DNA from: an uncultured virus (IMG/VR IMGVR_UViG_3300046517_000932)
Lineage: Duplodnaviria; Heunggongvirae; Uroviricota; Caudoviricetes
Direction: 5' to 3' (one strand)
IMG/VR virus record: IMGVR_UViG_3300046517_000932
Length of the DNA: 64,000 bases
How positions within the stretch are numbered: the stretch's first letter is position 1; every line of letters starts with the position of its first letter. Below the pieces are notes generated by a model. That model did not search any database, had not been told where the DNA came from, and worked only from the letters and a program-made list of their open reading frames with translations. This document shows, in pieces, positions 1,662-34,284 of this stretch. Position numbers and translations under genes: made by a program.

Positions 1662-1689
1662 GGATGATACTCAAGTTGCGTTGAGTCTC

Positions 1690-1705
1690 ATGTTGGTGTC
1701 ACGAC
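1690..1705 (-). promoter_or_regulatory. Putative late promoter GTCGTGAC-ACC-AACAT upstream of terS
   Basis: Matches the 12-copy motif; overlaps hairpin 1664-1691 that covers the terS translation initiation region. Confidence 0.75.
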
Positions 1706-1828
1706 TGAGACCGGGTATCAGCCCCTCAGTCTCACGGTGCGCCCTAGCGGCGCCCTATGCCGGCGCGGCCCGCGCGGAACCCTTTGCCTACTGGGTCCGC
1801 GCGCGTCACGCGTCACACTTCGAGTCTG

Positions 1829-1942
1829 TTAGCGGATCGCGGACGCGACGCACAGCGCGATCATCGACAAGAGTGCCGGCCATACCGAATCGAACGCCAG
1901 GGACGCGACGCCCGCCGCATTCAGGATGAAATACCAGACCAT
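1829..1942 (-). CDS. Small hydrophobic protein (MVWYFIL...)
   Basis: TGATG coupling to the upstream ORF; hydrophobic. Confidence 0.45.
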   Translation of the reverse strand: MVWYFILNAAGVASLAFDSVWPALLSMIALCVASAIR

Positions 1943-2064
1943 CAGCGCATCTTGCGCGGCGCATAGACCGCCCAGCCGGCGGCCGATCGATGCCCGCGCT
2001 CCTCGAGCGGACGCGGATCGTAGACGAGCGCGATCATGTGAAGCCAGAACAGAACCGGCAGCAT
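1942..2064 (-). CDS. Small hypothetical protein (MLPVLFW...)
   Basis: TGATG coupling on both sides. Confidence 0.4.
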   Translation of the reverse strand: MLPVLFWLHMIALVYDPRPLEERGHRSAAGWAVYAPRKMR

Positions 2065-2294
2065 CAGAACCCTCCGCCGAGCAGCGGCCCGCCGGACGGG
2101 AACGCCTTGACCAGGTCCGCCGGCGATACGCCAGCGTCCCAGCCCTCGAGCCAGTATTCGCGGCAGCGGCCGCCCGTGTACGGGCAGGACTCGCGGGAAT
2201 CGCCGTGCGCCTTGGCGACGTGCCCACGATTGCGCTCGAGCGCCGCAAGACGCGCCTCCGTTTCGGGCGTCGCGATCGATGCGACCGCCATCAT
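2064..2294 (-). CDS. Ribosome modulation factor (RMF)-like protein
   Basis: LERNRGHVAKAHGDSRESCPY...REYWLEGW follows the RMF pattern (RG..A...G.S.E.CPY.....R..WL.GW). Confidence 0.7.
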   Translation of the reverse strand: MMAVASIATPETEARLAALERNRGHVAKAHGDSRESCPYTGGRCREYWLEGWDAGVSPADLVKAFPSGGPLLGGGF

Positions 2295-2554
2295 GGCGCC
2301 ACCGATGCAGCGAGATCCTCCGCCGTGCCCATCGGCGGCAGCAGCGGCACATCGGCAGCGGCGCCGACGAACAGGCCGCCAGGCGTGCGCAGCGTGTTGC
2401 CGTCGACCTTGAAATCGACCGTCATGCCGGCACGGTTCGTCGGATGGATGTAGAACGTCACGCTATCGGTTGCGACCGACGCGCGCAGCGAAAAGTCGAT
2501 CGATCCATTGCACGCGAGCTCGTCGCGCAGGTACTGCTCGAGTGTTTGACTCAT
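2291..2554 (-). CDS. Hypothetical protein
   Basis: GGAG RBS; ATGA overlap with the next gene. Confidence 0.65.
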   Translation of the reverse strand: MSQTLEQYLRDELACNGSIDFSLRASVATDSVTFYIHPTNRAGMTVDFKVDGNTLRTPGGLFVGAAADVPLLPPMGTAEDLAASVAP

Positions 2555-2569
2555 ACCATCTCCAACGGG

Positions 2570-3097
2570 TTATGCGCCGCCCTCGCGAGCAGCGTCGAGA
2601 AAATCCTGAATGCCCTGATTCCAGGCGCCGTACTTGCGCACGACGGACGAGAACTCCTCGACGTCGTGCCCTTTGATCGCCCACACCGGCAGGCCGTCCT
2701 TGTCGAATTTCGGCGCGTCGTACTTGTCGACCGCCTGCACCGCGTGGCACATCTCGTGATAGACGAGGATCTCGCGCAGCAGCGGACTCGACTCTCGCCA
2801 GTAGTCGTAATCGAGAACGATCAGGAAGTCGGGGAAGTGCCCGAACAGGCGCTCAACCATCCACACGAAAAAGTCGCGCAGGCCGCCCGTGACCGTCGGC
2901 ATGTAGCAGGTGCCCAGGATCTGCCGGCCCTGCTTGATCTGCGGATTCGTGCGGAATAGCCACTCGATCGAGGCGTCTTCAAGGTGAGAATGTTCGGGAA
3001 GCTTCATCAGCCGCGCAGCGATGACGGCCGGATGGTCCGGATTGGATTCCGGCACGATGAACATGCCGGACAGATCGATCTGATCGTCGTCGCTCAT
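2570..3097 (-). CDS. Putative phage metallopeptidase
   Basis: HEMCH (HExxH) motif and downstream GHDVEEFSSVVRKYG; start at MSDDDQ. Confidence 0.85.
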   Translation of the reverse strand: MSDDDQIDLSGMFIVPESNPDHPAVIAARLMKLPEHSHLEDASIEWLFRTNPQIKQGRQILGTCYMPTVTGGLRDFFVWMVERLFGHFPDFLIVLDYDYWRESSPLLREILVYHEMCHAVQAVDKYDAPKFDKDGLPVWAIKGHDVEEFSSVVRKYGAWNQGIQDFLDAAREGGA

Positions 3098-3198
3098 CGG
3101 CACGCCATCCGCCCGAATTGGTAGAGCGCGCCGAGCACGAACGCGACGACGGCGGCCGCCTGGACCGCCGAGATCACCCACTCGAATAATTTGCGCAT
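3094..3198 (-). CDS. Small membrane peptide (MRKLFEW...)
   Basis: GGAGG RBS, one hydrophobic helix, first ORF after late promoter 3221-3236. Confidence 0.55.
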   Translation of the reverse strand: MRKLFEWVISAVQAAAVVAFVLGALYQFGRMACR

Positions 3199-3220
3199 GC
3201 CTGCACCTCCCAATGCAGGC

Positions 3221-3236
3221 ATTTTTCCGTCACGAC
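3221..3236 (-). promoter_or_regulatory. Putative late promoter GTCGTGAC-GGA-AAAAT
   Basis: Motif match; overlaps hairpin 3197-3222 that encloses GGAGG and includes the start codon. Confidence 0.7.
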
Positions 3237-3607
3237 CTGGCGACGTCCCAATCGGTTGCGGCAGCAGCCTCGAGATCCGCCAGGGAGGCGGACCGCAGCG
3301 AGACCATCGGCGCGGCCGCGTAGGCGTCACGCCATTGGCGCTTGAACTCGTCGACGTCGGCCGGCGGCACATTCACCAGGAACGGCGCAGCGTCACGCCG
3401 ATTACGCATGCCCTCGCGCACTTCCATCAGCCCGCGATACGGCCGGCCCATAGCGAAGCGCTCGAGGTGATCCAGCGCCGTGCAGACGTCCGGGAACTCC
3501 GCCATCCAGCGCCGCACCTGTTGCGTCTCGACCCGCCAGCGCTCGAGCTCCTCGAGATCCTCGTGCGCAACGGCCCAGGCGATCGCCCGCTTGAGCCAGC
3601 CGATCAC
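3230..3607 (-). CDS. Hypothetical protein
   Basis: Part of a coupled leftward gene string. Confidence 0.6.
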   Translation of the reverse strand: MIGWLKRAIAWAVAHEDLEELERWRVETQQVRRWMAEFPDVCTALDHLERFAMGRPYRGLMEVREGMRNRRDAAPFLVNVPPADVDEFKRQWRDAYAAAPMVSLRSASLADLEAAAATDWDVARS

Positions 3608-8381: not shown

Positions 8382-8576
8382 ATGATCGAAAACCGCAAGA
8401 AGTACGACGCCTCGCTCGACATCTTCCGCGCAGCGTCCCGCACCTACCGCGCCGCAGCCGAGGCATACCGCGCCCGCACGATCGGCGACGACGAATTCCT
8501 CCTGGCCCGCAACGCGTTCAACGCTGCGCAGATCGCAGCAGACGCGGCCGAAGCCGACTACCTCGCATCGCTCTAA
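8382..8576 (+). CDS. Early hypothetical protein
   Basis: AGGAG RBS before MIENRKK. Confidence 0.65.
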   Translation: MIENRKKYDASLDIFRAASRTYRAAAEAYRARTIGDDEFLLARNAFNAAQIAADAAEADYLASL

Positions 8577-8580
8577 CGCG

Positions 8581-8769
8581 ATGACTGCCCGCCTGCAGCA
8601 GCACATCGCCCGCGCCCTCCTCGCTCATGGTGTTTCCGGCGAGCTCGTCCCCATGATCGCCGGCGGCCTGCTACTGGTCGTCGACGATGCGCGGCAGCTC
8701 GAGACCGCCCGCGCCGCAGTCTCCGCCGATTTCCCCGAAGTCGCTCGAGTGACCACCCATGCCGAGTAA
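8581..8769 (+). CDS. Hypothetical protein
   Basis: Operon position. Confidence 0.45.
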   Translation: MTARLQQHIARALLAHGVSGELVPMIAGGLLLVVDDARQLETARAAVSADFPEVARVTTHAE

Positions 8770-9031
8770 GAAAAAAACCATCCTCCGCGCCGTGCCCCGC
8801 GCGACCTGGACGCCAGAGATCGGCCGGCCGTTCGCCAGGGTCGGTCCGGATCAAGTCATCTGCTGCGATCCCGGCGCCGACATCCAGTCCGACGCGGCCG
8901 ACGCCGCCGAGCTCGCGCACCGCTGGAACGCATACCCGCAGCTAGTCGAGGCACTGACCCGCATCGTCCACACCGGAAAGCTCAGCGTCGCGCACGAAGC
9001 ACTCGCCCACCTCAAAGCATCGACGAAATGA
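8759..9031 (+). CDS. Hypothetical protein
   Basis: AELAHRWNAYPQLVEAL motif, common in phage early proteins. Confidence 0.6.
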   Translation: MPSKKKTILRAVPRATWTPEIGRPFARVGPDQVICCDPGADIQSDAADAAELAHRWNAYPQLVEALTRIVHTGKLSVAHEALAHLKASTK

Positions 9032-9327
9032 GCACGAACAGCATCCTCGCCCGCGCGACCATCAAAGCTCTCACCGCCGAGCACGCGCCGGCACCGAAGC
9101 AACGTCGCAGCAAGGGATACAAACTCGTCGACGAAGGCCGCCGCGCGCCGAGCGTTCACGTCCTGTTGACGGATGCCCAGGTGCTCGAGTGCCGCTCACG
9201 GTTTGAATTCGAACGCGGATGGGCACTGGAACGCCTGGCCGCCGAGTACGGCACGTCGCGCGACTACATGCGCCAGCTTCTCAGCTACCAGACGCGATCG
9301 AAACTGATCCCGCGCCGGCCCGCGTAG
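9028..9327 (+). CDS. HTH-containing protein
   Basis: LTDAQVLECR...LERLAAEYGTSRDYMRQLL HTH pattern. Confidence 0.6.
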   Translation: MSTNSILARATIKALTAEHAPAPKQRRSKGYKLVDEGRRAPSVHVLLTDAQVLECRSRFEFERGWALERLAAEYGTSRDYMRQLLSYQTRSKLIPRRPA

Positions 9328-9345
9328 CTGAGGAGTCCTATCGCT

Positions 9346-9393
9346 TACTCATTTTTGATACTGAAGATCAATCAATTTACTCATTTTAGATTA
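9346..9393 (+). promoter_or_regulatory. Operator pair
   Basis: TACTCATTTTTGATAC (9346-9361) and TACTCATTTTAGATTA (9378-9393). Confidence 0.65.
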
Positions 9394-9443
9394 TGCGTCC
9401 GGACGTACAATCTGTTTCATACCAACCGAACGGGGTCTACAAA

Positions 9444-9668
9444 ATGAATCTGCATCAGCAACTCGCAGGCAACCAGAACCGCCGCATGGCAAACGAGGCG
9501 CGTTTTCTGGATCGCATCGACGCGCGCGAAGACGCAGCCGAATCGATGCTCGGCACGCTGATCCGCGAAGGCAAGGAAGTGCGCTACGTGTGGCCGAAGG
9601 GAGGCAAGTACCGCGAAGGCACGCGCCTCGAACTGATCGCCTTCCTCGTCCGCCGCAACTACGTCTGA
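9444..9668 (+). CDS. Hypothetical protein
   Basis: Start at MNLHQQ downstream of the operators. Confidence 0.65.
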   Translation: MNLHQQLAGNQNRRMANEARFLDRIDAREDAAESMLGTLIREGKEVRYVWPKGGKYREGTRLELIAFLVRRNYV

Positions 9669-9690
9669 ATCGGCCCGCAGAGAGACCACC

Positions 9691-10143
9691 ATGAAAAAAC
9701 AACAATTCACGTTCACGACCGCAGAGGGGAAAGTCGAGACCCGCTCGAGCGCCCGCCCCTACACGCACGTCGTCGTCGGCCGCAGCGACTTCAATAAGCA
9801 GCGCGCGCACGTCGTCGCAATGCGCTCGAAGATGGCGAAGAACGACCGCGACAACTATCGCTTCTGGGCAACGTGCGCCTCGACGCCTGTCGGCGCGATT
9901 TACCCCGGCGAGAACTTCACCGTTCGCCAGGAAGCGCACGACCAGGGACTGAAGATCATCGCCGCGTATCCGACGGTCGAGTCGTACGTCGCCGCGCGTG
10001 CCGATGCGCGCTACAACGCTGTGCCCGCCGGCGACACCGGCCCGGAGCTCGTCCTGCAATGGTCAATGACTGAGCGCGCCGCGCGCGCCGCAGTTAGCGC
10101 GTTCTTGAAATTCCACTCAGACGTGCGAGTCGTTGCGCTCTAA
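9691..10143 (+). CDS. Hypothetical protein
   Basis: TRSSARPYTHVVVG motif; phage-like codon usage. Confidence 0.7.
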   Translation: MKKQQFTFTTAEGKVETRSSARPYTHVVVGRSDFNKQRAHVVAMRSKMAKNDRDNYRFWATCASTPVGAIYPGENFTVRQEAHDQGLKIIAAYPTVESYVAARADARYNAVPAGDTGPELVLQWSMTERAARAAVSAFLKFHSDVRVVAL

Positions 10144-10185
10144 CCCAACCCGCCCGGTCCGCCGGGCACCACTGGATCTCACACC

Positions 10186-10380
10186 ATGCAACTCGACACC
10201 CAGCGCATTCAAACCATCAACGCAGCCGGCCGCCTGGTCGTCTCGTTCAATGTCCTGCGCGACGGCGTCGTAGTCGACAACGCGCCGACTCAGTCGGTTG
10301 CATGGGAGCGCATGGACGCGCTGTGGATCGCGCGCCCGGAGGCGGACCGCGAGCTTGAGCGCCAGTACACCGGCCGTTAA
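10186..10380 (+). CDS. Hypothetical protein
   Basis: Operon position; upstream hairpin and GGA. Confidence 0.55.
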   Translation: MQLDTQRIQTINAAGRLVVSFNVLRDGVVVDNAPTQSVAWERMDALWIARPEADRELERQYTGR

Positions 10381-10423
10381 ACCAATCCGCCCGCCTCGCG
10401 CGGGCACGCACCAGGAGCACACC

Positions 10424-10654
10424 ATGACAAAAGCCGAAGCACGAAAGATCCTCGCGGCACACAAACGGATCCGCGACGCGATCGCATCCATCAACACTCT
10501 CACGGATCGCGTAGTCGAGCGCGATTGCGAGCGCGGCACCGACGACATGCAGACCGCCGAGTACCAGAACCTCCAGTACTTCGCCGACACGGTTCAGGCA
10601 GCGCTCGAGGAGTCGGTAAGCGAATCAGACGCCAACCTAGTGTTGGGCGCATAG
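10424..10654 (+). CDS. Hypothetical protein
   Basis: AGGAG RBS before MTKAEAR. Confidence 0.6.
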   Translation: MTKAEARKILAAHKRIRDAIASINTLTDRVVERDCERGTDDMQTAEYQNLQYFADTVQAALEESVSESDANLVLGA

Positions 10655-10750
10655 CACACGCCAGGCTCGCGCGCCTACTCATTTTCGAGTAGCATCCCAC
10701 GCGAGCCCGCCGACGTTCGGGCGTCCTCCACACACAGAGAGACCATCGCC

Positions 10751-11302
10751 ATGATCCGCACCGCCCTCGCCTTACTCGTCACGATCGCCGCGGCCGCGCC
10801 GCTGCAGGCAAACGCCGCCTACGCCTGGAACTCGCGCCCGGATTCGCCGGACGCGTCCAACACCGTTCTGTCGACCGGCGCGATGGACGCGATGGCAGCG
10901 TTCAAAGCGAAGCAGGCCGCCCAGGATGCGCAGCAGGCACAGCGCGACCAGGAGCGCGCGCAGCTCGAAGACGCGCAACGCGCCCGCAATGCCGAAGCGG
11001 CCGCCGCGCGCGCGCACGAGCTCGAGGTGCGCAACTCGCCAGCCGGGCACGTCGCCGGCGCCGAGCAGCAGATCAGGTATTGCACCGCCCGGATATCGGA
11101 GGCACGCGACGCGCTGCAGCGTGAGAATCAGATCGAGAAGGAATCAGGCGTGCAGAACCTCACGATTCGTTACCGCGCCGGATCCGAGATCACCTATTGC
11201 AACGGACAGATCAAGGCCGCGTTCCGAGAGTATCGCCAGTACGGCGGCACCGCCTCGAGCCCGGACGCACTCGTCAAACAACTCATCTCTGAATCGCAAT
11301 GA
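10751..11302 (+). CDS. Exported/periplasmic protein with signal peptide
   Basis: MIRTALALLVTIAAAAPLQANA signal peptide with an AxA site; one Cys pair; operator upstream at 10676-10691. Confidence 0.7.
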   Translation: MIRTALALLVTIAAAAPLQANAAYAWNSRPDSPDASNTVLSTGAMDAMAAFKAKQAAQDAQQAQRDQERAQLEDAQRARNAEAAAARAHELEVRNSPAGHVAGAEQQIRYCTARISEARDALQRENQIEKESGVQNLTIRYRAGSEITYCNGQIKAAFREYRQYGGTASSPDALVKQLISESQ

Positions 11303-11514
11303 CCAACTGCGTTACCTGCGGACACGCGCGCTGGACCACCACGCCGAGCGGCCGCATCAAAGCGAAAGTCGCCGGCAAGTGTCACGCGCCGATCGTCGAC
11401 CTAACCCCGCACCTTCCCGCGTGCGCCCAGGCTCCGCGCGTGTCGAAAAACTCCATCTGGCCCGACACCTGCGAGACCTGCCCGACCTGGATCCAGAAGG
11501 AGACCGCGCAATGA
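11299..11514 (+). CDS. Small Cys-rich protein
   Basis: CxxC...C...CxxC; ATGA coupling. Confidence 0.6.
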   Translation: MTNCVTCGHARWTTTPSGRIKAKVAGKCHAPIVDLTPHLPACAQAPRVSKNSIWPDTCETCPTWIQKETAQ

Positions 11515-11732
11515 CGATCCCCGACCGTTTCCGCCGTCGCACGCAGTGGCAGAACAACGCGATCGAGAAAGCCGACGAGAAGCTCGAGACCGCCGAACTC
11601 CCGACGTACAGCGAAGCGATCACGTCGCTCGCCGATCTGCTCACCTGGATCGGCAGCGCACCGGACGTTCCGCCCGCGACGATCGCCGCAGCTCACACGC
11701 TGATCGACCGCGCCACAGGATGCAGCCAATGA
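11511..11732 (+). CDS. Hypothetical protein (MTIPDRF...)
   Basis: AGGAG RBS; ATGA coupling. Confidence 0.6.
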   Translation: MTIPDRFRRRTQWQNNAIEKADEKLETAELPTYSEAITSLADLLTWIGSAPDVPPATIAAAHTLIDRATGCSQ

Positions 11733-12145
11733 CACCGCACGAACAACGCGCCTGGGATCGCCTCACCGCCGACATGGAAGGCGACATGCACCAGTACGAC
11801 TATTGGCAGGACGTCGCCGAGAACGTGCGAACGATCTACCTGAACCGGATCCTGCTCGAGGACGCCGCGCGCGCCGCAGGCATCGAGCTCGTTTGGTCGA
11901 CAATGCAGGACGTCTCGCCGCGACGCACCGACTCATACGACGCCTGGAACCCGCTCACTGACGACGGCGACGCGCTGCGCCTGGCCGTTCACCTGCGCCT
12001 TCTAATCAACCAGGCCCCGCACGCCGCGATCGTCGAGGGACAGCACAAAGGGATCATTGAGCCCTATGTCGATCACGCCGGCAACCCCTACGCCGCCACC
12101 CGCCGCGCGATCGTCCGAGCAGCCGCCGCCCTCGCCGCCGCTTAA
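11729..12145 (+). CDS. NinX-like phage protein
   Basis: WNPLTDDGDALRLAV...ATRRAIVRAAA motif. Confidence 0.6.
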   Translation: MTPHEQRAWDRLTADMEGDMHQYDYWQDVAENVRTIYLNRILLEDAARAAGIELVWSTMQDVSPRRTDSYDAWNPLTDDGDALRLAVHLRLLINQAPHAAIVEGQHKGIIEPYVDHAGNPYAATRRAIVRAAAALAAA

Positions 12146-12164
12146 TCAAATCTGAACCCGCACG

Positions 12165-12189
12165 AGCCAGGCCGAGCGCCTGGCTTTTT
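12165..12189 (+). terminator. Intrinsic terminator
   Basis: AGCCAGGC/GCCTGGCT stem followed by a T-tract. Confidence 0.75.
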
Positions 12190-12220
12190 GCTTTCTGCCG
12201 GCCGCACCTCCTCCGCGACA

Positions 12221-12284
12221 TACTCAAAAAAGAGCAAATTCCCTTGCTCTGCTGTACGCTCACGCGCATAATCCTTTTTGAGTA
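12221..12284 (+). promoter_or_regulatory. Operator pair
   Basis: TACTCAAAAAAGAGCA (12221-12236) and TAATCCTTTTTGAGTA (12269-12284). Confidence 0.65.
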
Positions 12285-12304
12285 AATCACCGCGAGACGC
12301 CCAC

Positions 12305-12442
12305 ATGTTGTTCCGCACGATCCAGTACTTCGAAGCACGCGCATTCAGCCTGCGCCCGTTCTACCGCTTCGACGTGCGCAGCCGCACCGGGCGCCTCATC
12401 GAATCGCATTGCATCCGCCTCGACGACGTCGTCTGGTGCTAG
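12305..12442 (+). CDS. Small hypothetical protein (MLFRTIQY..., 45 aa)
   Basis: Manually read ORF below the track cutoff. Confidence 0.45.
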   Translation: MLFRTIQYFEARAFSLRPFYRFDVRSRTGRLIESHCIRLDDVVWC

Positions 12443-12452
12443 GGAGATCCGC

Positions 12453-12587
12453 ATGTACACCGTGAAATACAAGTTGGACGGCCGGTTCCACATCGAGCAC
12501 TACGACCACGCCGAGTGGCGCGATCACCGCGCGTGCCGCCTCATCATGCGCGGCATTGCCGTCACCCTTTCCAAAAAGAAGCTATGA
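12453..12587 (+). CDS. Small hypothetical protein (MYTVKYKL..., 44 aa)
   Basis: GGGAG RBS; ATGA overlap with the next gene. Confidence 0.55.
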   Translation: MYTVKYKLDGRFHIEHYDHAEWRDHRACRLIMRGIAVTLSKKKL

Positions 12588-13141
12588 GCAACACAGTAGT
12601 TCAGAAAGAAACCCCGATGGAACGCTACAGCGTGCGCGGCGATCACGGCGTATGGGCCACGATCGCGCTGCGCGACTACGAGCGCCCCAACAACACCGGC
12701 GAGCGGCTCCACGGCGGAGAGATCTTGATTAACTCGGACTTCGGCGAGTACGCCTATTCCTGGGGGAACATGGGCTCACCGCTGAAGCAGTTTCTCTGCC
12801 GGATCGGCCGCAACTACGTGATCGACAAATTCACGAACGGTCGCGATACCGAATTCGACTTTGACGCGTCGCTCGCGGCCGTGAAGAAGGAGATCCGGAG
12901 CATGCGCAGGGAGCGCGAGATCACGCGCGCCGAGGCGCGCGATGCAATGGATGACCTTCCGAGCGAGGACGAAGGCAAAGATCAGTTTCTACGCGAATTG
13001 TGGAACATGGACCTGTTCACCGACGGCGATCCGCCCTTCGAATTTCTCCTCGAGCGCGAACGCCCGCAGATCACCGGGTTCTACAAACACGTCTGGACGC
13101 CATTCGTCGAGCACCTGCGCGCCGAGCTCGCCAATGGGTAA
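12584..13141 (+). CDS. Conserved phage hypothetical protein
   Basis: INSDFGEYAYSW...LKQFL...YVIDK motif. Confidence 0.7.
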   Translation: MSNTVVQKETPMERYSVRGDHGVWATIALRDYERPNNTGERLHGGEILINSDFGEYAYSWGNMGSPLKQFLCRIGRNYVIDKFTNGRDTEFDFDASLAAVKKEIRSMRREREITRAEARDAMDDLPSEDEGKDQFLRELWNMDLFTDGDPPFEFLLERERPQITGFYKHVWTPFVEHLRAELANG

Positions 13142-25881: not shown

Positions 25882-27054
25882 ATGCCGAAACTCACAAAAA
25901 AAATCGTTGAAGACACCCAAGCCACCGACAAAGACACGTGGGTATGGGACACAGATCTGCCCGGCTTTGGCATGCGGATCCAGCCGAGCGGCCGCAAGAC
26001 GTACGTGACGCGGTACCGTACCGCCGCCGGCACGCAGCGCAAGACGACGATCGCCCGCTGCTGTGATCTCACCGCCGACAAGGCCCGCGAGCTCGCACGC
26101 AAGACGTTCGCCGCTGTCGCCGAGGGAAAGGATCCGGCCGCCGAGAAGCACGCCATGAAGACCGCGCCCACCGTCGACGAACTGCGCGTGCGGTACATGC
26201 GCGAGCACGCGACACCGTTCAAGAAGACCGGCAGCGTCGCGAACGACGAGATGCTTTGGCGCCTGCACGTGATCCCCGCCCTGGGCAAGAAGCGCGTCGA
26301 CGCCGTGACGCGCGCGGACATCCTCGCGCTGCATGGATCCCTCGCCGAGAAGCCTGCGACCGCAAACGCGTGCGTCGCGCTGCTCAGCAAGGCCTTCAAC
26401 CTTTCCGAATTGTGGGGATGGCGCACCGCCGGCAACCCATGCCGCCAGGTGAAGAAATTCAAGATCCGCGAGCGCGAGACGATTCTCACGCACGAGCAGA
26501 TCGGCCGCCTCAACGACACGCTGAACGAGATGACGCTCGACGATGAAATCCCTCAAGCGATGGCGGACCTGATCCGTCTGCTCCTCGTCACCGGATGCCG
26601 CCTCAACGAAATCATGAGCGCGCGCCAGGAATGGATCGATCGCGAACGCCAGCTCCTCCTACTGCCGGACAGCAAGGTCGGACAGCGCCGCATCGCCCTG
26701 TCCGCCGCCGCGATGGAGATCATCGAGGACATCCCCGCCGGCGAATGGCTGATCCCTGGCCGTTGCGCCGGCGAGCACCTGAAGCACCCGCACGGCATGT
26801 TCAAGCAGATCAAGGCGCGCGCGAAGCTCCCAGCCGATCTGCGGCCGCACGACCTGCGCCACACGGCCGGATCCCTGGCGCACATGGCCGGCCTCACGCA
26901 GAAGCAGGTTGCGACCATGCTCGGTCACAGGCAACTCCAGACCACCGCCCGATACCTGCACGGGTTCGCCGGCGATGACGCGCGCGCCGTCGACACGGTC
27001 GGAAACGTGATCTCCGCCAACTTCCGGCGGCCGCCTCAGCAAATCGCAGCGTGA
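25882..27054 (+). CDS. int: Tyrosine integrase with N-terminal arm-binding domain
   Basis: WDTDLPGFGMRIQPSGRKTY arm domain; TGCRLNE, HDLRH, LGH and TARY catalytic residues. Confidence 0.92.
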   Translation: MPKLTKKIVEDTQATDKDTWVWDTDLPGFGMRIQPSGRKTYVTRYRTAAGTQRKTTIARCCDLTADKARELARKTFAAVAEGKDPAAEKHAMKTAPTVDELRVRYMREHATPFKKTGSVANDEMLWRLHVIPALGKKRVDAVTRADILALHGSLAEKPATANACVALLSKAFNLSELWGWRTAGNPCRQVKKFKIRERETILTHEQIGRLNDTLNEMTLDDEIPQAMADLIRLLLVTGCRLNEIMSARQEWIDRERQLLLLPDSKVGQRRIALSAAAMEIIEDIPAGEWLIPGRCAGEHLKHPHGMFKQIKARAKLPADLRPHDLRHTAGSLAHMAGLTQKQVATMLGHRQLQTTARYLHGFAGDDARAVDTVGNVISANFRRPPQQIAA

Positions 27055-27618: not shown

Positions 27619-27643
27619 AGGCCCGCTTACTGCGGGCCTTTTT
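27619..27643 (+). terminator. Intrinsic terminator at the convergence point
   Basis: AGGCCCGC/GCGGGCCT stem followed by a T-tract. Confidence 0.7.
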
Positions 27644-28253
27644 CATGCTCCGTCGGGTTCTTCTCGTGCCAGTCGATCAGCGCGTTCAGTTGCGCCCGGC
27701 AATCAGCATACTTTCCGCCGTTGACGACGACGTTGTTGAGGACGTCGGGAGTGTCAATGCTGGCGCGAGCAACGTTGGGGTCTCCGGCCGAACCAGCAGT
27801 GACGCCGGCGGGGACGGGCAAAGCATGCTCGACGGAAGGGTCGAGGGCGTCGTTCCACACGCCGACAAAGCCAGCAGTGTACACAGAAGCAGGGATAGCC
27901 TTGAGAGGTTCACCGAATTTCTCCACATAGGATTTCGTTACGACCGGCACGCGCTGGATCTGCGTCACGGTCACGGTTTTGATATTGCTTTTCTCAGCCT
28001 CGAGATCAGCCGCCAGCTTGTCGCCGACCTGGTTTGCTGCATTGAGCTTCGCCTGCCAGGCGTCGTCCGCCTTCTTCTGCGCGGCCGCGTACTGCGCCGT
28101 GTCGCGCGCGCCGCGATCCGTGTCGCCCTTGTAATAGCCGCCGGCGCCGGCCGCGCCGATCGCGAGCACGACGGCGAGCAGCGCCCACGGCAAACACGAA
28201 CCGCCGGCAGATCCGACGGCGACTTTCGCTACATCCTCGACAACTCCGCTCAT
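27627..28253 (-). CDS. Rz: i-spanin (Rz-like)
   Basis: N-terminal transmembrane segment, coiled coil, last gene of the lysis cassette. Confidence 0.8.
   Translation of the reverse strand: MSGVVEDVAKVAVGSAGGSCLPWALLAVVLAIGAAGAGGYYKGDTDRGARDTAQYAAAQKKADDAWQAKLNAANQVGDKLAADLEAEKSNIKTVTVTQIQRVPVVTKSYVEKFGEPLKAIPASVYTAGFVGVWNDALDPSVEHALPVPAGVTAGSAGDPNVARASIDTPDVLNNVVVNGGKYADCRAQLNALIDWHEKNPTEHEKGPQ
27686..27928 (-). CDS. Rz1: o-spanin lipoprotein embedded in Rz (Rz1-like)
   Basis: Lipobox LSAC and Pro-rich CPSPPASLLVRP; out of frame inside Rz. Confidence 0.8.
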   Translation of the reverse strand: MWRNSVNLSRLSLLLCTLLALSACGTTPSTLPSSMLCPSPPASLLVRPETPTLLAPALTLPTSSTTSSSTAESMLIAGRN

Positions 28254-28517: not shown

Positions 28518-29183
28518 TCACACCCCCAATGCTTTTTGAGCTCGCCCGTATGCCGCGAGGCGCGCCGCTTGACCGATCGGCATCGACGTCGAGTTCGGAT
28601 TGCCGAGGTTGATCGCTTTGCTGATCGCCGTGATCTGGCCGCCGTCGGCGAACTTGTTCAGGCCATTGACCGACCAGAACCACCCAGCCGACAGCGCTCC
28701 CGCTTGGGGCTGCTCGAGCAACTCCGGATGCGCTACGAGATCCATGCCGATCGCGGCCGCGCACGCCGTGTAATTGGTACGCCCGGTGATCTGAATCGGG
28801 CCGCGCCCACGGAACGCCCAGCCGTCGCCGCTCGACTCCGGGCCGTTGCCGTTGCGATTCGCGTAGCAGTTGTTCGCGATCGCCTGCTGATTCCGGGCGA
28901 TGCGATTCGCCAGGTCGTTCGGCACCTTTACCGGCGCGCGCGGATTGACGGCGTAACGGGACGGCCAAGTGTCGGCGAGACCTTGCGCGCCGTAGTTCAG
29001 GTTTTCGACGTGGGCGTTCAGACCTGCGCTTTCGACGCCAACCTCCGCGAGGAACGCAGCGACGCGGAGAGCCGTATTGATCTCGAATCGATCACAGGCG
29101 GCCTGGAGAGGACCGAGCCAGAGAGCAGCGTTCGACGCGGACGCGCCGCACACCGTCTGGATCAATGGAGCGGTAAGATTCAT
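28518..29183 (-). CDS. Endolysin, glycoside hydrolase family 19
   Basis: RVAAFLA..G.ES, ENLNY, FRGRGPIQITGRTNY, SAGWFW. Confidence 0.92.
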   Translation of the reverse strand: MNLTAPLIQTVCGASASNAALWLGPLQAACDRFEINTALRVAAFLAEVGVESAGLNAHVENLNYGAQGLADTWPSRYAVNPRAPVKVPNDLANRIARNQQAIANNCYANRNGNGPESSGDGWAFRGRGPIQITGRTNYTACAAAIGMDLVAHPELLEQPQAGALSAGWFWSVNGLNKFADGGQITAISKAINLGNPNSTSMPIGQAARLAAYGRAQKALGV

Positions 29184-29536
29184 GGCTTGTCGGCCTTTGA
29201 ATCGAGACGCTGATGAAGACTGTCGAGCTTCGCGGAGAACGACGTGCTCATATCGCGAATGCTCGTCGTCAGCGACTCGATCGCCCTATTCAGTCCGTCG
29301 ATGGTCTGAGTGAGCGCGCCCTGCGTGACGAAACGCTGCTCGGCGTAGAGCTTGTAATCGGCGAGCTCGCGAGAGATCGTGTCGCACTTCTTGTCCGCCT
29401 CGATCGCGTTCTTGATCACCGCCGCATTCGCGGTTTTGGCATCATCACGCACGCTCAAGTAAAGGAACCAAAGCACCACACCAATGCCTGTTATCAACAG
29501 AGATCCGCCGGCGACGAGAATTGCAGTCCAGTCCAT
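29180..29536 (-). CDS. Membrane-anchored coiled-coil lysis-cassette protein (holin/antiholin-like)
   Basis: Single N-terminal transmembrane segment; GGAG RBS before MDWTAIL. Confidence 0.6.
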   Translation of the reverse strand: MDWTAILVAGGSLLITGIGVVLWFLYLSVRDDAKTANAAVIKNAIEADKKCDTISRELADYKLYAEQRFVTQGALTQTIDGLNRAIESLTTSIRDMSTSFSAKLDSLHQRLDSKADKP

Positions 29537-29603
29537 CAAACTTCTCCGGTCGCAAACGGGCCGCCCAGTGCGATCCCTACGTATTGCGAACTTCCATAAA
29601 CCG

Positions 29604-29619
29604 ATTTTCGTGTCACGAC
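29604..29619 (-). promoter_or_regulatory. Putative late promoter for the lysis cassette GTCGTGAC-ACG-AAAAT
   Basis: Motif match; ATG 6 nt downstream. Confidence 0.75.
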
Positions 29620-29623
29620 ACAC

Positions 29624-29887
29624 TCAATCCGCGCGCGTACCCTCGTCCGCCTGAATGCTGTCGGGACAATGACCTGGCTGGATCCAGTTGAGAATGCCGC
29701 ACATGATCCGGCAGCCGATGCAGGCACCGTCACGCACGTTCTTGCCGAACACTGAGGAAAGCGTTTCGCCAGGATCCCCGAAACGCGCAGTTGGCTCCGG
29801 CCGAAGAATGAGATTCAGGAGAGGACCGAAGGCGGTATTCACCGCCTGGTCGAGAATGAGGAGAAGGTTCCAGAAGTACCGCGTCAT
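29624..29887 (-). CDS. Conserved phage hypothetical protein
   Basis: LDQAVN...GDPGETLSS..G...C..C...HC motif. Confidence 0.7.
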   Translation of the reverse strand: MTRYFWNLLLILDQAVNTAFGPLLNLILRPEPTARFGDPGETLSSVFGKNVRDGACIGCRIMCGILNWIQPGHCPDSIQADEGTRAD

Positions 29888-29917
29888 TCGATCAGCCTAC
29901 GTCAAGGACATAGGCTG

Positions 29918-29933
29918 ATCATTGCATCACGAC
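29918..29933 (-). promoter_or_regulatory. Putative late promoter variant GTCGTGAT-GCA-ATGAT
   Basis: One mismatch to the core; ATG 6 nt downstream; overlaps 10-bp hairpin 29890-29920. Confidence 0.55.
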
Positions 29934-30658
29934 CAGGTGATAGCCTGAACTGCAGCGACCGTCGTCGCCGCCATCACCTGCGCATAGAGCGCTTGATTCT
30001 TCGCCATGTTGGCAAGAATGGATGACTTGCCATCCACGCCGACCTGCTGAATCTGCGCAGCCGAATGGTTCACGAACGCCCAATTTCCAGAGGCGTCCTC
30101 GCACCAGAACGGCGTGACCCACATCTGCCACTGCGCACCACCATCGCTCGCGATCGCACCATCGGTAGTCGGCCATGTCGGCGCCGTCGCACCGCTGGTG
30201 CCGGCCGCGACGCACACGTAGAGCGCCGCCCCATCCTTGACGAGATCGCCTGCCGCACGGGCCTTTCCGGCGGTCCACGGCACGGCCGCATTGAGCGCCA
30301 GCAGCGCTGCAATGATCGAGGCGGACAGATTCTGCTGGTCCGTCGTCTTTGCGGGATACGTGTGCACGACGCCGAGCGCCGTCGACGTGAAGCCCGCGAC
30401 AATAGAGTCGGCACACGCAGCGGAAAGCATCGCGACCTGCGTCGCTTGCGCGCTCGCGAGAAGCTGCGCGGCCGTCGGCGCGACAGGCGCGACGAGTGCG
30501 CCACTCGCTACCGTATAACCATGCGTCGAAATGCACGTTTGCCATTGCGCCTCGGTGATATTGATCACCTGCGCGCCCGCCGGCGCGGGACTATCTACGC
30601 TGTCGTAATAGGCGACGATTGCGCCGGTTGCGTCATACGCTGCTTGTTTTTGGCCCAT
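29927..30658 (-). CDS. Tail fibre assembly protein (DUF4376-like) with inserted carbohydrate-binding-like module
   Basis: YDS...ITEAQWQ, DQQNL, FWC.D..G.WAFVNHSAAQIQQV; follows a fibre gene. Confidence 0.75.
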   Translation of the reverse strand: MGQKQAAYDATGAIVAYYDSVDSPAPAGAQVINITEAQWQTCISTHGYTVASGALVAPVAPTAAQLLASAQATQVAMLSAACADSIVAGFTSTALGVVHTYPAKTTDQQNLSASIIAALLALNAAVPWTAGKARAAGDLVKDGAALYVCVAAGTSGATAPTWPTTDGAIASDGGAQWQMWVTPFWCEDASGNWAFVNHSAAQIQQVGVDGKSSILANMAKNQALYAQVMAATTVAAVQAITWS

Positions 30659-30662
30659 GATT

Positions 30663-31412
30663 TTAGTTTCCGATTGCCTGCCAATAGAAATTCCCGGAAC
30701 TCGGTCCCTGAGAGCCGCCAATGTTCGTAAAACTCTTTACCCCGAACCCAGCCGGGGTAGCGTTGTAAATGCCGTAAATGGTGGTGTTGCTTGCGGACCA
30801 GCCCGCCGCGCCGCTTTCGATGGCGACCACTGAACGGCAGGCGTTCGGGAAGGCAATCGGGAACGTCATGTTCGCGTTTCCGCTTGTCGTTGATGCCGCG
30901 CCCCACTGGATAATCAGACCGCTAGGCAGCTTTTGATAGCCGGATGCGCCAATGGATGCCGCGAAAGTGCCAGTGTAAGAAGCCACATACCAGCCCGCGC
31001 CATTTGATACAAACTGCGCCACCTCACCAGCGGCCAGCGCAAACGTGTTTGCTGGCGCAGAGTATTGGCTATTGATTGACTCCGCAGCGTTGCCCTTCAC
31101 GATTGCGCCGACAGGCGCGGCTATCGTCACCGTGGAACCAGACGGCGCGCTAGAAATCGGCGGCAGCGTTTGCGTGGTGCTTGCGACAGTGATAAAAAGA
31201 AACGCGCCAAGGTGCGCCGATGCTGTTAGCGAAGACGATACCCCGATTCCGACCACGCCAGAAAACGACTCGCCATTGGCCTTAACCCATGCCGTCGTCG
31301 CAAGCTTCAGGGAGTTGTCAAACTGAGCCGGCGACTGATTCGCGAGGATGTTCCCCGCCCCATCGCCAGCGAGAAGCGCTGCAAGGGCCGCAAGAATTGC
31401 TGAACGGCTCAT
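30663..31412 (-). CDS. Second, short tail fibre / receptor-binding protein (gp53-like C-terminus)
   Basis: QFDNSLKLATTAWVK and GYQKLPSGLIIQWG...FPIAFPN...YWQAIGN. Confidence 0.75.
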   Translation of the reverse strand: MSRSAILAALAALLAGDGAGNILANQSPAQFDNSLKLATTAWVKANGESFSGVVGIGVSSSLTASAHLGAFLFITVASTTQTLPPISSAPSGSTVTIAAPVGAIVKGNAAESINSQYSAPANTFALAAGEVAQFVSNGAGWYVASYTGTFAASIGASGYQKLPSGLIIQWGAASTTSGNANMTFPIAFPNACRSVVAIESGAAGWSASNTTIYGIYNATPAGFGVKSFTNIGGSQGPSSGNFYWQAIGN

Positions 31413-31415
31413 CTA

Positions 31416-31856
31416 TCAAACTCCAATGAAATCAGGTGCGGCCGGAAGATCGACCGCAGGAAACCCGTCCGCCTTCGACAGGTCACGGAGCGCCTTGCGA
31501 TAAGCGGAAAGCGCCTTGAATTGCTCCGAGCTCAGCGTCGTCGCGTCGCCGGCGAGGACTTCGTCCTGGTGCCGTGCGACGAGCCAATCGGAATTGACAA
31601 GCGCGACGGTGCGTTGCGCGCGCAGCGACGCCGCGAGCTCGTTCTTAGTCGGCGCCGGCAGATCAACGAGCTTGGCCTTGCCGCTTTCGAGCACTTTCAT
31701 GCGCTTGCCGGCGGATTGGCCGGCAAGCAGCGCCGCATGGACGTCGTCAGTAATAGGAACGGCACTCACTGGGATTCGATCCGTGCCGTGCAGATCTGAC
31801 GAGTAAAAAGCGATCACAAAGCGATCCGAATCAAGATCGGCATATCGAATAGTCAT
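31416..31856 (-). CDS. Tail fibre assembly chaperone
   Basis: RAQR...L..SDW...AYRKALRDL....GFP...LP..P. Confidence 0.8.
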   Translation of the reverse strand: MTIRYADLDSDRFVIAFYSSDLHGTDRIPVSAVPITDDVHAALLAGQSAGKRMKVLESGKAKLVDLPAPTKNELAASLRAQRTVALVNSDWLVARHQDEVLAGDATTLSSEQFKALSAYRKALRDLSKADGFPAVDLPAAPDFIGV

Positions 31857-31861
31857 TTTCT

Positions 31862-33781
31862 TTAATACCCAATAGCGATCCAGTTGATTGCAAGACCCGC
31901 ACCGACGACAGCGCCGGAGGTCGTGATGTAGCCGGTAATGCCCATCGTCGTCGTGTTCAGCACCGTGACGTTTGCGGTGTACGCCCCGGATTGCTGAACC
32001 GTCGCCCAGCCACCGAACCATCCCGTCGGGAAAGTGGTCGGCAGCGTTTGCGTGATTACGCCAGACGAGTTGGTTGAGCCGCTGCCCCACTGGATGATCA
32101 AACCCGAGGGAAGCTTTTGATAGCCAGGCGAGGCGAGGAACGAGCCGAACGCGCTGGAGTACTTGAGCTGCGCCGATCCGCCGACGGCATACCAAATATT
32201 TGCGGAACCCCTGCTTTCAAGAATCAGGCTGTCGCCATTGTTCAGCGTGAAAGTTGTAGGGTTCGAACTGCTGGGAGCGAAAAGATCGCCAGACTGCTTT
32301 GCGATCGTCACCGCGCCGGGCGATACGTTAATAAACTCCACCCGCGCGCCGTCAGCAAACGAATTTGCCGCGTTCATCGTCACCGTAAAGGAGCCGGCAG
32401 CGCTTAAAACAATCGTGCTGCCCGCGAACGCTGGCGTGATAGGCCCGACACCCGTAACAACATTAACGTTAGATGCCTGCAAGCCTTGACGCTTCACAAA
32501 CGCGGTCGTCGCGAGCAATGTCGAGTTATCAAACTGCGCGGCCGTCACCCCCGTATCGCCGCCCGCCATCATGATCGGACCGGCCATCGTCCCGCCTGCG
32601 AACGGCAGAGCATTCGCGACCGTGAACGATGAATATGCGACGACCTGAATGTCGTCGTTAAGCACGGACGCGGTGCTGAGGACGACGCTCGAGCCGTTCG
32701 TCGCCGTGTAGTTCGCCGGCGAGATCTGCGCGCCGTTGACGATGACCGCGATATTGCCCGGCGTGTACGGGCAATTGAACGTCGTCTGCCCGGCCGTCGC
32801 CGTGAAGGTGTAAAGCGAGAACGCGCTCGATGCAGCCGCGCCCGCGAGCACGACGTTCGAACCGTCGCAGTACGCCACGACCGACTGCCCTTGAGGCACG
32901 AGCGCATTGGTGCCAGCGCCCCCGGACAGGTTGATCGAGTAAGCGCCCGTCGTCTTGTTTGCCACGACGTAGACGCCGCCCTGCGACGGCAGATTGACCT
33001 GAATGCTCGCCGTCAGCGCGCCCGTAAGCAGGACGATCCCGTTGCCGTACTGAGCGGCCGTCAGCGTGACGTTGGCTCCTCCCGCGACGTTGACCGTAAC
33101 GACGCCGTTCGTGAGCTGGTAGACAAAATTCGTCGTCGCGACCTTCGTGCTCTGATCGCCCGTTGCAGCCGTCGGCGCCGTCGCCGTCCCCGTGAGTGCT
33201 ACGTTGACGAAATCGCTCGAGGACAGAAGCACGTTCGTGCCATCGCAGAACAGCTCCTGCGTCTTGCCCTGCGTGACCGCGACGCCGGTACCGGATGCCG
33301 TCTTGACCGTCAGCGTGTAGGCGCCGGACGTCAGATTCTCGACGATCATCGTCTTCGTCGACGCCGGCACGATAACCGCGATGTTGGCAGTAAGCGCGCC
33401 CGTGAATACGAGGATGCCGTTACCCGCCTGCACGGACGTGAGCGTGACGTTCGAGCCACCCGCAACGTTGATCGACGCCAGGCCGTTGACCGTGCCCTGC
33501 ACGAATGCCGTCGTCGAGATCTTGGTCGAGTTGTCGCCGAGCGCGGGAGTCGGCGCCGTCGGCGTGCCCGTCAGATTCGCGTTATTGAGCGGCGCGACCG
33601 TCGGCGGAATGGTCGTCCCATTCTCGAGGTTCGTGACGTGCTGATACAGGTACGCGGTACGATTCGCGAGGTTGAGCAGCGGCGCATTCGATACCGCACC
33701 TACGCCGCCGTCGACCGGATCGATGACCTCGAGCTGGTAAACGCCGGCATCGTAACTTACGACTTCTGGCTGATATGCCAT
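31862..33781 (-). CDS. Tail fibre protein
   Basis: GVYQLE..DPV.GG...SN..L..LANRT.YL N-terminus; internal TGTPTAPT duplication; gp53-like C-terminus. Confidence 0.9.
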   Translation of the reverse strand: MAYQPEVVSYDAGVYQLEVIDPVDGGVGAVSNAPLLNLANRTAYLYQHVTNLENGTTIPPTVAPLNNANLTGTPTAPTPALGDNSTKISTTAFVQGTVNGLASINVAGGSNVTLTSVQAGNGILVFTGALTANIAVIVPASTKTMIVENLTSGAYTLTVKTASGTGVAVTQGKTQELFCDGTNVLLSSSDFVNVALTGTATAPTAATGDQSTKVATTNFVYQLTNGVVTVNVAGGANVTLTAAQYGNGIVLLTGALTASIQVNLPSQGGVYVVANKTTGAYSINLSGGAGTNALVPQGQSVVAYCDGSNVVLAGAAASSAFSLYTFTATAGQTTFNCPYTPGNIAVIVNGAQISPANYTATNGSSVVLSTASVLNDDIQVVAYSSFTVANALPFAGGTMAGPIMMAGGDTGVTAAQFDNSTLLATTAFVKRQGLQASNVNVVTGVGPITPAFAGSTIVLSAAGSFTVTMNAANSFADGARVEFINVSPGAVTIAKQSGDLFAPSSSNPTTFTLNNGDSLILESRGSANIWYAVGGSAQLKYSSAFGSFLASPGYQKLPSGLIIQWGSGSTNSSGVITQTLPTTFPTGWFGGWATVQQSGAYTANVTVLNTTTMGITGYITTSGAVVGAGLAINWIAIGY

Positions 33782-33791
33782 CCCTCAGTCC

Positions 33792-34244
33792 TTAGAACGA
33801 AATGGTCCACGTGCCCGAGAAAGTCAGGTCCGTGTCTTTGTTGAGAGGCAGCGTCCGCGTTTTGCGCGCGTACAGCGCTCCGCCTGCGGTAAGCAGTCCG
33901 AATTCCGAGATCGCTTTGCCGTTCGCTTCGGACGTGCCGAGCGAGAACGCGAATTGAACTTGATTCGTTGCCGGGTAGGAGTGCCCGTCGACGGACTTTG
34001 TGTATGCGCTGGTGAGCGCCGTATTGGCGAAAGCAGGTGCAACCGCACCCGTGCCAAACCCGATCTGCGTAACGCTTTGCCCGGTCACGTCGCCGCCGAG
34101 CAGCTTGGCGTGCGCCTGCTGTGAGCCGACTACGACCAGGTTTTTTTCTTCGAAAATCTCGATGAGCTTGCCGGCGCGGAAAACCTCCAGGTAGAAGTCT
34201 CCGCGCGGCTTACGCTCAAAATCATCCCGTAGGGAAAGGTTCAT
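33792..34244 (-). CDS. Baseplate/tail-fibre attachment protein
   Basis: IGFGTG...EANGKAISEFGL...LYARKT...NKD....SGTWTISF. Confidence 0.7.
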   Translation of the reverse strand: MNLSLRDDFERKPRGDFYLEVFRAGKLIEIFEEKNLVVVGSQQAHAKLLGGDVTGQSVTQIGFGTGAVAPAFANTALTSAYTKSVDGHSYPATNQVQFAFSLGTSEANGKAISEFGLLTAGGALYARKTRTLPLNKDTDLTFSGTWTISF

Positions 34245-34268
34245 GCCACGCCTCCAGTCTATTACTGG

Positions 34269-34284
34269 AGTTTGTTGTCACGAC
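34269..34284 (-). promoter_or_regulatory. Putative late promoter GTCGTGAC-AAC-AAACT
   Basis: Motif match; overlaps CTCCAGT/ACTGGAG hairpin covering GGAGG. Confidence 0.75.

Follow-up and report, generated by a model that had tools for sequence, protein, structure and literature searches.

Hairpins embedded in predicted promoters may hide the ribosome-binding sites of downstream genes in an uncultured myophage

Introduction

In bacteriophage T4, late promoters are embedded in the DNA coding for the 5' strand of a stem that sequesters the ribosome-binding site (RBS) (PMC3014915 section 29; PMC2988022 section 12). According to these papers, the long early RNAs are untranslated, the late RNAs are translated, and related phages keep similar leaders; the mechanism is described there as established for T4 e (lysozyme), soc, 49, I-TevI/II/III and segB, and for Aeh1 mobE (PMC3014915; PMC2988022). 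Here we describe five hairpins of similar layout in 64,000 nucleotides (nt) of an uncultured virus of the Caudoviricetes (IMG/VR record IMGVR_UViG_3300046517_000932); this whole stretch is called the window below. An earlier note on this DNA had pointed to T4 gene e and I-TevI as precedents, and the sections cited above bear the precedent out.

The window represents a myophage related to Bordetella phage vB_BbrM_PHB04 (genus Phabquatrovirus; hereafter PHB04), with which it is colinear in gene order and distant in sequence. We analyzed the five hairpins for their position, predicted folding, enrichment at promoters, and conservation in relatives, and weighed the alternatives at the points where the evidence bears on them.

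Results

Position of the hairpins

Every hairpin stands behind a GTCGTGA(C/T) motif, and its 5' arm begins 4-6 nt after that motif (Table 1). At all five sites, the 5' arm occupies the interval between a -10-like box and the predicted transcription start (+1), and the 3' arm lies over the Shine-Dalgarno (SD) sequence or the start codon. The earlier note had reported these inverted repeats with the 5' arm in the -10/discriminator region and the 3' arm over the initiation region; all five repeats are present as written, and the geometry holds at each of them. With the arms drawn as in that note, the 5' arm begins within the -10-like box and ends from 3 nt before to 3 nt after the predicted +1, and the extended minimum free energy (MFE) stem of site 4 continues to 29907, 5 nt beyond +1. 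The 3' arms stop 1-7 nt short of the start codon, except at site 2, where the arm takes in the AT of the ATG at 3198-3196 that opens an open reading frame (ORF) of 34 amino acids (aa). The site 1 hairpin stops 2 nt short of the start codon (ATG at 1661) of a 219-aa gene.

A second hairpin, TGAGAC...GTCTCA at 1706-1735 (minus strand), abuts the upstream side of the site 1 motif, and repeats of the GAGAC/GTCTC type occur at the matching place in the relatives G002 and L004 and in PHB04.

At sites 2 and 4, the TGA within the motif is also a stop codon, that of the upstream ORF 3230-3607 at site 2 (TGA at 3230-3232) and that of the tail-fibre gene at site 4 (TGA at 29927-29929). These stops lie 7-8 nt before the 5' arm and lend themselves to a reading of the hairpins as translational-coupling gates, opened by ribosomes that finish the upstream gene; read-through RNA would then be translated only where that gene is translated too. 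At sites 1, 3 and 5, however, the arm is separated from the nearest upstream stop by more than 130, 18 and 24 nt, past the reach of a terminating ribosome, and coupling leaves the end of the arm at the predicted +1 unexplained. We consider such gates possible at sites 2 and 4 but distinctly unlikely as an account of the five hairpins.

A terminator scan gave no sense-strand terminator-like site at or just upstream of the five sites. On the opposite (plus) strand, T-runs follow the hairpins of sites 2 and 5 only (3197-3222 and 34252-34270), which the scan scored as terminator-like; these antisense candidates were set aside as probably a by-product, the T-runs being the complement of the A-rich -10 box.

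The scan bears on the proposal that the hairpins mainly terminate or insulate upstream transcription, as promoter-embedded terminators in which RBS masking is secondary. Relatives do carry hairpins with T-runs at the same position, the 5' arm lying between the motif and the predicted +1: PHB04 90345-90389 (L002:40345-40389, minus strand), G003 22926 (minus), G004 15799 (plus), G005 17347 (plus) and Jeremy 30000 (L175). A sense-strand T-run is found at none of the window hairpins, whose 3' arms, ending just ahead of the start codon, take in the SD or some of the ATG, and we regard termination as an improbable main role for them. The T-run hairpins of the relatives look like terminators that only upstream transcripts would see. 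The PHB04 hairpin lies directly upstream of the holin gene, and the T-run hairpin of PHB04 and G003 at the counterpart of site 4 would be a second way of isolating the lysis genes from tail-gene transcripts.

Promoter motif and predicted transcript start

The promoter-like motif can be written GTCGTGAC-N3-A-N3-T. Exact GTCGTGAC occurs 11 times in the window against 3.98 expected, a count reached by 0 of 100 shuffles, and 10 of the 11 copies are on the minus strand, which carries most genes. A strand bias was present in every relative examined (19/2, 10/0, 19/5, 13/0 and 9/1, plus further records). In seven genomes, an ATG or GTG opening an ORF of at least 50 codons stands behind the motif at 46 sites, at exactly 14 nt in 36 and at 15 nt in 10. 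Within the group of 36, A is found at -11 in 34 and T at -7 in 35; counted from the motif start, these are positions 11 and 15, and the ATG follows 7 nt after the T. All five hairpin sites carry both bases. A 16-nt promoter matrix applied to the seven genomes returned 130 sites, compared with 4 in the reversed sequence.

An A at -11 and a T at -7 are typical of the -10 box of sigma-70 promoters, and these are the only two bases of the box that the clade conserves. A -35 hexamer was not found; GTCGTGAC occupies about -22 to -15 instead. Because the 46 leaderless sites place ATG or GTG 14-15 nt behind the motif, we predict a sigma-70-type promoter with +1 at motif end +15, which is the A of the leaderless ATG. 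For this predicted +1, RNA from the promoter would lack most of the 5' arm, as the earlier note had supposed. Of the 62 window proteins searched with Pfam, none was recognised as a sigma factor or as another transcription factor. Two scans with a sigma-70 consensus yielded 3 and 5 matches against 4.0 and 4.2 expected, and one match falling on the arms of site 1 (ATGAGA/TATCAT) was treated as chance.

The 11 exact-motif sites comprise four leaderless promoters, five with a hairpin, one (29619) with a mini-ORF, and one (22008) without a nearby start. The 29619 promoter has a longer leader with a six-codon mini-ORF at +1 (29577-29597, minus strand; ATG GAA GTT CGC AAT ACG TAG), the A of which is at the predicted +1. 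Site 4 has a mini-ORF as well, of four codons, at its predicted +1 (29897-29911, minus strand; ATG TCC TTG ACG TAG), kept in G002 and L008 as ATG TCC TCG GCA TAG and with its stop 9 nt before the real start. Such a mini-ORF could act as a leaderless upstream ORF that feeds reinitiation. One further GTCGTGAC (19834-19841, minus strand) falls within the 3'-terminal part of the SSB gene, and the spacing to its AATAAT box is longer by one base; this motif is kept in G002, PHB04, G004, G006 and G007 and is likely an internal promoter for downstream genes.

At the four leaderless promoters of the window, pairing across +1 is 0.0. An SD core precedes 1 of 67 leaderless starts, compared with 306 of 657 other called genes, and several leaderless units are present in Touem01. 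The arrangement agrees with the ribosome's recognition of a 5'-terminal AUG, reportedly described by Brock and colleagues in 2008.

The leaderless class also bears on the possibility that the hairpins remain on the mature RNA as 5'-terminal or intercistronic stabilisers or as marks of processing sites, with transcription beginning upstream of the 5' arm or with motif-directed cleavage making the 5'-AUG ends. The stems do begin only 4-6 nt after the motif, and cleavage at a fixed distance from it would account for the rigid 14-nt spacing equally well. Against this explanation stand the two conserved bases, an A and, four bases on, a T that precedes the ATG by 7 nt, which together are the signature of a sigma-70-type -10 box. 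It would also give the leaderless genes leaders of 8-15 nt without an SD (1 of 67 has one), and the starts of the 5' arms range from -14 to -5 rather than being fixed at an RNA end. We consider it unlikely.

Predicted folding and accessibility

Folded from the motif end to the start codon, sites 1 to 5 gave MFE values of -8.3, -17.4, -17.9, -23.7 and -10.6 kcal/mol. Against 200 dinucleotide shuffles, the corresponding z scores were -3.21, -5.17, -5.19, -8.23 and -2.95, and 1, 0, 0, 0 and 1 of the 200 shuffles folded at least as well. In a long RNA of 97-105 nt, all five stems are within the MFE structure. The mean unpaired probability of the initiation region (-14 to +3) was 0.33, 0.27, 0.18, 0.12 and 0.22 for sites 1 to 5 in the long RNA, and 0.57, 0.48, 0.63, 0.54 and 0.56 in RNA beginning at the predicted +1. 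The contrast between long and short RNA that the earlier note had anticipated is thus seen in prediction at each site, the range rising from 0.12-0.33 to 0.48-0.63.

Enrichment at promoters in the window and in the clade

Hairpins occur at 5 of the 7 exact-motif promoters of the window that are not leaderless. By a loose measure, namely the expected pairs between -14..-1 and 0..+49, the binomial P for five of seven is 0.006-0.02. Enrichment within the window is moderate, the lowest of the five values (6.8) being reached at 21-27% of control positions.

For the clade, we compared leadered promoters (leader up to 60 nt) with leaderless ones, which serve as controls under the same promoter constraints. 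For 44 leadered promoters, the probability of belonging to a 5' arm was 0.54-0.67 at -8..-1 and fell to 0.13 by +4; for 51 leaderless promoters, it was 0.20-0.31. Pairing across +1 of at least 5 was found in 30 of the 44 leadered and 14 of the 51 leaderless promoters. Over 10 genomes, the counts were 66 of 114 and 19 of 67 (Fisher p=1.9e-4, Mann-Whitney p=1e-6; these and the other pooled p-values are optimistic, orthologous sites in related genomes not being independent). Local folds computed from the end of the motif failed to distinguish the two classes (80/114 leadered, 48/67 leaderless).

Accessibility of the initiation region was compared with that of 664 control genes, which are other called genes with sham starts at matched distances. 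In the long RNA it was lower at the leadered promoters (0.357 vs 0.458, p=1.6e-5), and in the short RNA the values were 0.58 and 0.55 (p=0.13, not significant). The gain on truncation was 0.222, compared with 0.092 in the controls (p=2.8e-8). The outcome was unchanged with the 333 controls having at least 25 nt of intergenic space. A strict rule (contiguous stem of at least 7 base pairs (bp), loop of 3-15, inner end of the 5' arm at -5..+3 of +1, 3' arm ending at -14..+3 of the start) selected 20 of 39 leadered promoters (odds ratio 6.6, p=1e-7), compared with 90 of 657 controls, for which a more lenient 32-nt range for the arm end was allowed. The enrichment is clear across the clade and much stronger than in the window alone.

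Conservation and covariation

At site 2, the arms read CTGTCCGCA/TGCGGACAT in G007 and ATTGCCTGC(A)/(T)GCAGGCAAT in G002 and L004, the latter with a paired T/A insertion. RNAalifold on four sequences found 9 pairs, two of them with double compensatory changes (C-G to U-A and U-A to C-G) and none broken save one gap. The arms of site 3 are identical in G002, and in the 80%-identical G007 a 12-bp hairpin (-21.4 kcal/mol) is formed by way of a C and a G inserted on opposite arms. Among the close relatives of the phosphoesterase (L082-L105), 23 of 24 have no motif upstream and are uninformative for site 3. At site 4, L008 replaces an A-U with a C-G pair and has two U-G/U-A pairs swapped. The site 1 gene has different hairpins in G006 and PHB04.

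Site 5 has the broadest comparison. The arms are CTCCATT/AATGGAG in G002 and L008, CTCCGGTT/AACCGGAG in G004, CACTCTAGTC/GACTGGAGTG in G007, and CCTCCGT/ACGGAGG in a shifted register in PHB04; L016-18 have an SD-pairing stem, and L019-21 have no motif. In a MAFFT alignment (A6), 91.9% of cells are paired, compared with 78.3% in shuffles (0 of 500 reach the observed value) and 24-64% in slid controls, and four of the eight pairs have changed on both sides. RNAalifold found no consensus for all 12 orthologs, whose arms were misaligned by loop indels and the PHB04 register shift; the five-sequence set of site 5 and the site 3 set were also partly misaligned, and A6 was scored afterwards. A viral contig search with the metallopeptidase (2570-3103) as query returned nothing, and a metagenome search with the site 5 protein added only three loci. 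The Pseudomonas putida phage Jeremy offers a clean example at record position 38065, where GTGCAGCT/GGCTGCAC abuts the ATG.

These changes also bear on two other readings of the inverted repeats, as DNA operators of some regulator and as products of chance in a GC-rich sequence. The repeats overlap the promoter as does the I-TevI operator (PMC2988022 section 10), and the background of loose pairing is high. The five sequences are, however, mutually unrelated, pairing is preserved while the sequence changes at sites 2, 4 and 5, and the z scores and the enrichment over controls speak against chance. Operators or chance repeats are highly improbable on this evidence.

Genomic context

The guanine plus cytosine (GC) content of the window is about 62%, and that of its Phabquatrovirus-like clade is about 60-65%. 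At the DNA level, PHB04 matches it with 77% identity across 9% of the first 20 kb, and protein identities are 38-76%. The Pseudomonas phages Touem01, Jeremy and Dolphis are relatives more distant than PHB04. The stretch 29500-39499 is contained in 16 DNA runs, all rhizosphere metagenomes; no RNA dataset containing it was among the runs matched.

The features are listed in Table 1. Besides these, the window encodes tail, baseplate and head genes, small unknown genes and replication genes. The product labelled terS matches no Pfam or PHROG family, and the label rests on its position. For the holin candidate, the start given by the gene caller is too late. A tyrosine integrase gene at 25882-27054 (plus strand; PF00589 and an Arm DNA-binding domain) suggests that the phage is, or once was, temperate, and a large protein with DarA_C and LPD1 domains is encoded at 61162-63993 (minus strand).

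Table 1. Coordinates of the promoter-like motifs, hairpins and genes in the window (predicted +1 at motif end +15).
Feature	Position	Strand	Details
Site 1 motif GTCGTGAC	1698-1705	-	-10-like CAACAT 1690-1695; predicted +1 1683
Site 1 hairpin	1664-1691	-	ATGAGACTCAA/TTGAGTATCAT; 5' arm 1681-1691, 3' arm 1664-1674; one internal mismatch (4+6 bp)
Site 2 motif GTCGTGAC	3229-3236	-	-10-like AAAAAT 3221-3226; predicted +1 3214
Site 2 hairpin	3197-3222	-	ATGCCTGCA/TGCAGGCAT around GGGAGG; GGAGG 3206-3210
Site 3 motif GTCGTGAC	13711-13718	+	-10-like CAGCAT 13721-13726; predicted +1 13733
Site 3 hairpin	13723-13752	+	GCATAGCC/GGCTATGC, extended to 12 bp; ends 1 nt before ATG 13754
Site 4 motif GTCGTGAT	29926-29933	-	-10-like AATGAT 29918-29923; predicted +1 29911
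Site 4 hairpin	29890-29920	-	Extended to 14 bp; ends 2 nt before ATG 29887
Site 5 motif GTCGTGAC	34277-34284	-	-10-like CAAACT 34269-34274; predicted +1 34262
Site 5 hairpin	34252-34270	-	CTCCAGT/ACTGGAG; anti-SD CTCC pairs GGAG of SD GGAGG (34251-34255); ATG 34244
Leaderless comparison promoter	39818-39840	-	GTCGTGAC, 14 nt, ATG at 39818
Further leaderless promoters	48843-48865, 55832-55854, 60800-60822		Same arrangement; ATGs at 48843, 55832, 60800
Large terminase gene	1-984		PF05876
"terS" gene	1002-1661	-	219 aa; directly upstream of large terminase gene
Phage metallopeptidase	2570-3103	-	Downstream of 34-aa ORF
Hydrophobic 34-aa ORF	3094-3198	-	MRKLFEWVISAVQ...; overlaps metallopeptidase start; conserved in G002, L004, G007
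Small-ORF block	8382-13705	+	Terminal gene of plus-strand block is the metallophosphoesterase
Metallophosphoesterase gene	13754-15076	+	
SSB gene	19741-20187		
Rz-like spanin	27627-28253		Lysis cassette
Endolysin	28518-29183		Lysis cassette
Holin candidate	29180-29539	-	ATG ~29539 after GGAG; protein begins MDWTAILVAGGSLLITGIGVVL; just upstream of endolysin
87-aa gene	29624-29887	-	Directly upstream of holin candidate, endolysin and spanin genes
Tail-fibre gene	29927-30658	-	
150-aa gene	33792-34244	-	Behind site 5

Discussion

Interpretation of the five hairpins

We favour, with moderate confidence, the interpretation that the five hairpins are promoter-embedded anti-RBS hairpins of the T4 gene e and I-TevI type. 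The stems, their statistics, the conserved geometry and the covariation are observed; the transcript start, the read-through RNA with its timing, and the effect on translation are predictions. At the five sites, the bases between the end of the -10 box and roughly the predicted +1 are complementary to the SD and start region 8-20 nt downstream. RNA arriving from upstream would hold both arms and hide the initiation region, whereas RNA begun at the gene's own promoter would lack the 5' arm and leave that region open. Translation of the first gene of each unit would thus be tied to the use of its own promoter, and at the five sites probably only RNA from that promoter is translated, judging from the folding model. 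The leaderless promoters may reach the same end otherwise, through an SD-less ATG usable only as a 5'-terminal AUG.

Several points weigh against this interpretation. The +1 itself is inferred from the leaderless class and the -10 geometry. The stops at sites 2 and 4 are close enough to the 5' arm that a terminating ribosome could open the stem, in which case the device would be one of coupling and not a lock. Sites 4 and 5 are preceded by genes for the tail fibre and the baseplate, and the closest promoter on the upstream side of that run (39840) belongs to the same class. No stem of at least 7 bp is found at 19 of the 39 leadered promoters, and the background of the loose measure is high in GC-rich DNA (32-37% at a value of at least 5). 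To the non-independence behind the pooled p-values must be added the gene starts, which come from a crude codon-bias caller and are in some cases wrong; G002 30118, for example, was given a 5-nt leader, and the true sites dropped or mis-started include G002 9336, 90202 and 30118.

Conservation adds further points of this kind. The expectation that pairing persists in relatives stands for sites 2, 4 and 5, by compensatory changes, and for site 3, by its paired insertion. It fails for site 1, the weakest hairpin with its one mismatch, which folds poorly (MFE -4.0) in the 90%-identical G002 and L004. The site 3 hairpin is absent in PHB04, and site 4 in G002 keeps 11 of 14 pairs with three mismatched. 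Among the 12 distinct motif-bearing upstream sequences orthologous to site 5, five (G003/L010, G005, L013, L014) have a weak hairpin or none.

Extent and timing of the proposed control

The earlier note had spoken of a genome-wide translational lock on late genes. This is overstated, as the arrangement concerns only the first gene behind nine window promoters, five with hairpins and four leaderless. A temporal lock is also unproven at sites 4 and 5. The upstream genes there are tail genes of the same promoter class; therefore, read-through RNA would be late as well, and a temporal role is not evident. At these two sites, the hairpin would uncouple the gene from the upstream tail operon rather than delay its expression. 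At site 3, the hairpin could plausibly block earlier read-through, because the upstream genes (8382-13705) carry no GTCGTGAC motif; such a block is possible at sites 1 and 2, which lie behind a run of small unknown genes. The more cautious wording of the function is that translation is coupled to the gene's own promoter.

A wider proposal, which we put forward tentatively and hold to be rather less probable than not, is that these soil and rhizosphere myophages run "promoter-coupled translation" as a whole clade, which includes the lineages of PHB04, Touem01 and Jeremy and at least nine uncultured genomes. The first gene behind nearly every GTCGTGAC promoter would then be translatable only from the RNA of that promoter, by three interchangeable devices built on the same 15 nt from motif to +1. 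These would be an SD-less leaderless ATG, an anti-RBS arm just upstream of +1 and, in some lineages, a terminator with its 5' arm in the promoter. Site 4 may add a twist, in that its conserved four-codon leaderless mini-ORF at +1 could deliver ribosomes by reinitiation.

If the predicted starts hold, a device of a handful of T4 genes would be a general design rule in an unrelated clade rich in uncultured members, linked to a novel kind of promoter and accompanied by leaderless mRNAs. The genes insulated from read-through, the lysis cassette included, could then be predicted from the sequence, and the annotation of starts and transcription units in these genomes would improve. The proposal is testable in cultured relatives, for example at position 38065 of Jeremy.

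Comparison with known systems

No literature on transcription in this clade was found among the papers listed; for PHB04, Touem01, Phabquatrovirus and Dolphis, the results were genome papers only. Literature matches to the promoter 8-mer were unrelated among the matches listed, and "leaderless" combined with "late promoter" returned nothing on the clade.

Like other leaderless mRNAs, those predicted in the window have their ATG at the predicted +1 and no SD. Such an ATG is expected to be silent within a longer RNA; here the leaderless genes form a companion class, with predicted starts. Intrinsic terminators overlapped by a promoter resemble only the hairpins of the relatives, which have a T-run and a 5' arm within the promoter, whereas the five window hairpins are without a sense-strand T-run.

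The closest system is the T4 gene e group. As described in the cited sections on T4 (PMC3014915; PMC2988022), the SD or start codon is paired within the stem, as in the window. The T4 promoter is located within the 5' strand or immediately ahead of it, a placement predicted for the window as well, and site 4 resembles gene e in standing before lysis genes. The window differs in its clade and in its promoter, which is GTCGTGAC with an AnnnT box here and TATAAATA in T4. The arrangement is found at about half of the leadered promoters of a clade, compared with a few genes in T4. It stands beside a large leaderless class, the upstream RNA would also be late at two of its sites, and it is predicted here from the sequence. 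The mechanism itself is a known one. New are the kind of promoter, the clade in which the arrangement occurs, its presence at about half of the leadered promoters, and its combination with a large leaderless class.

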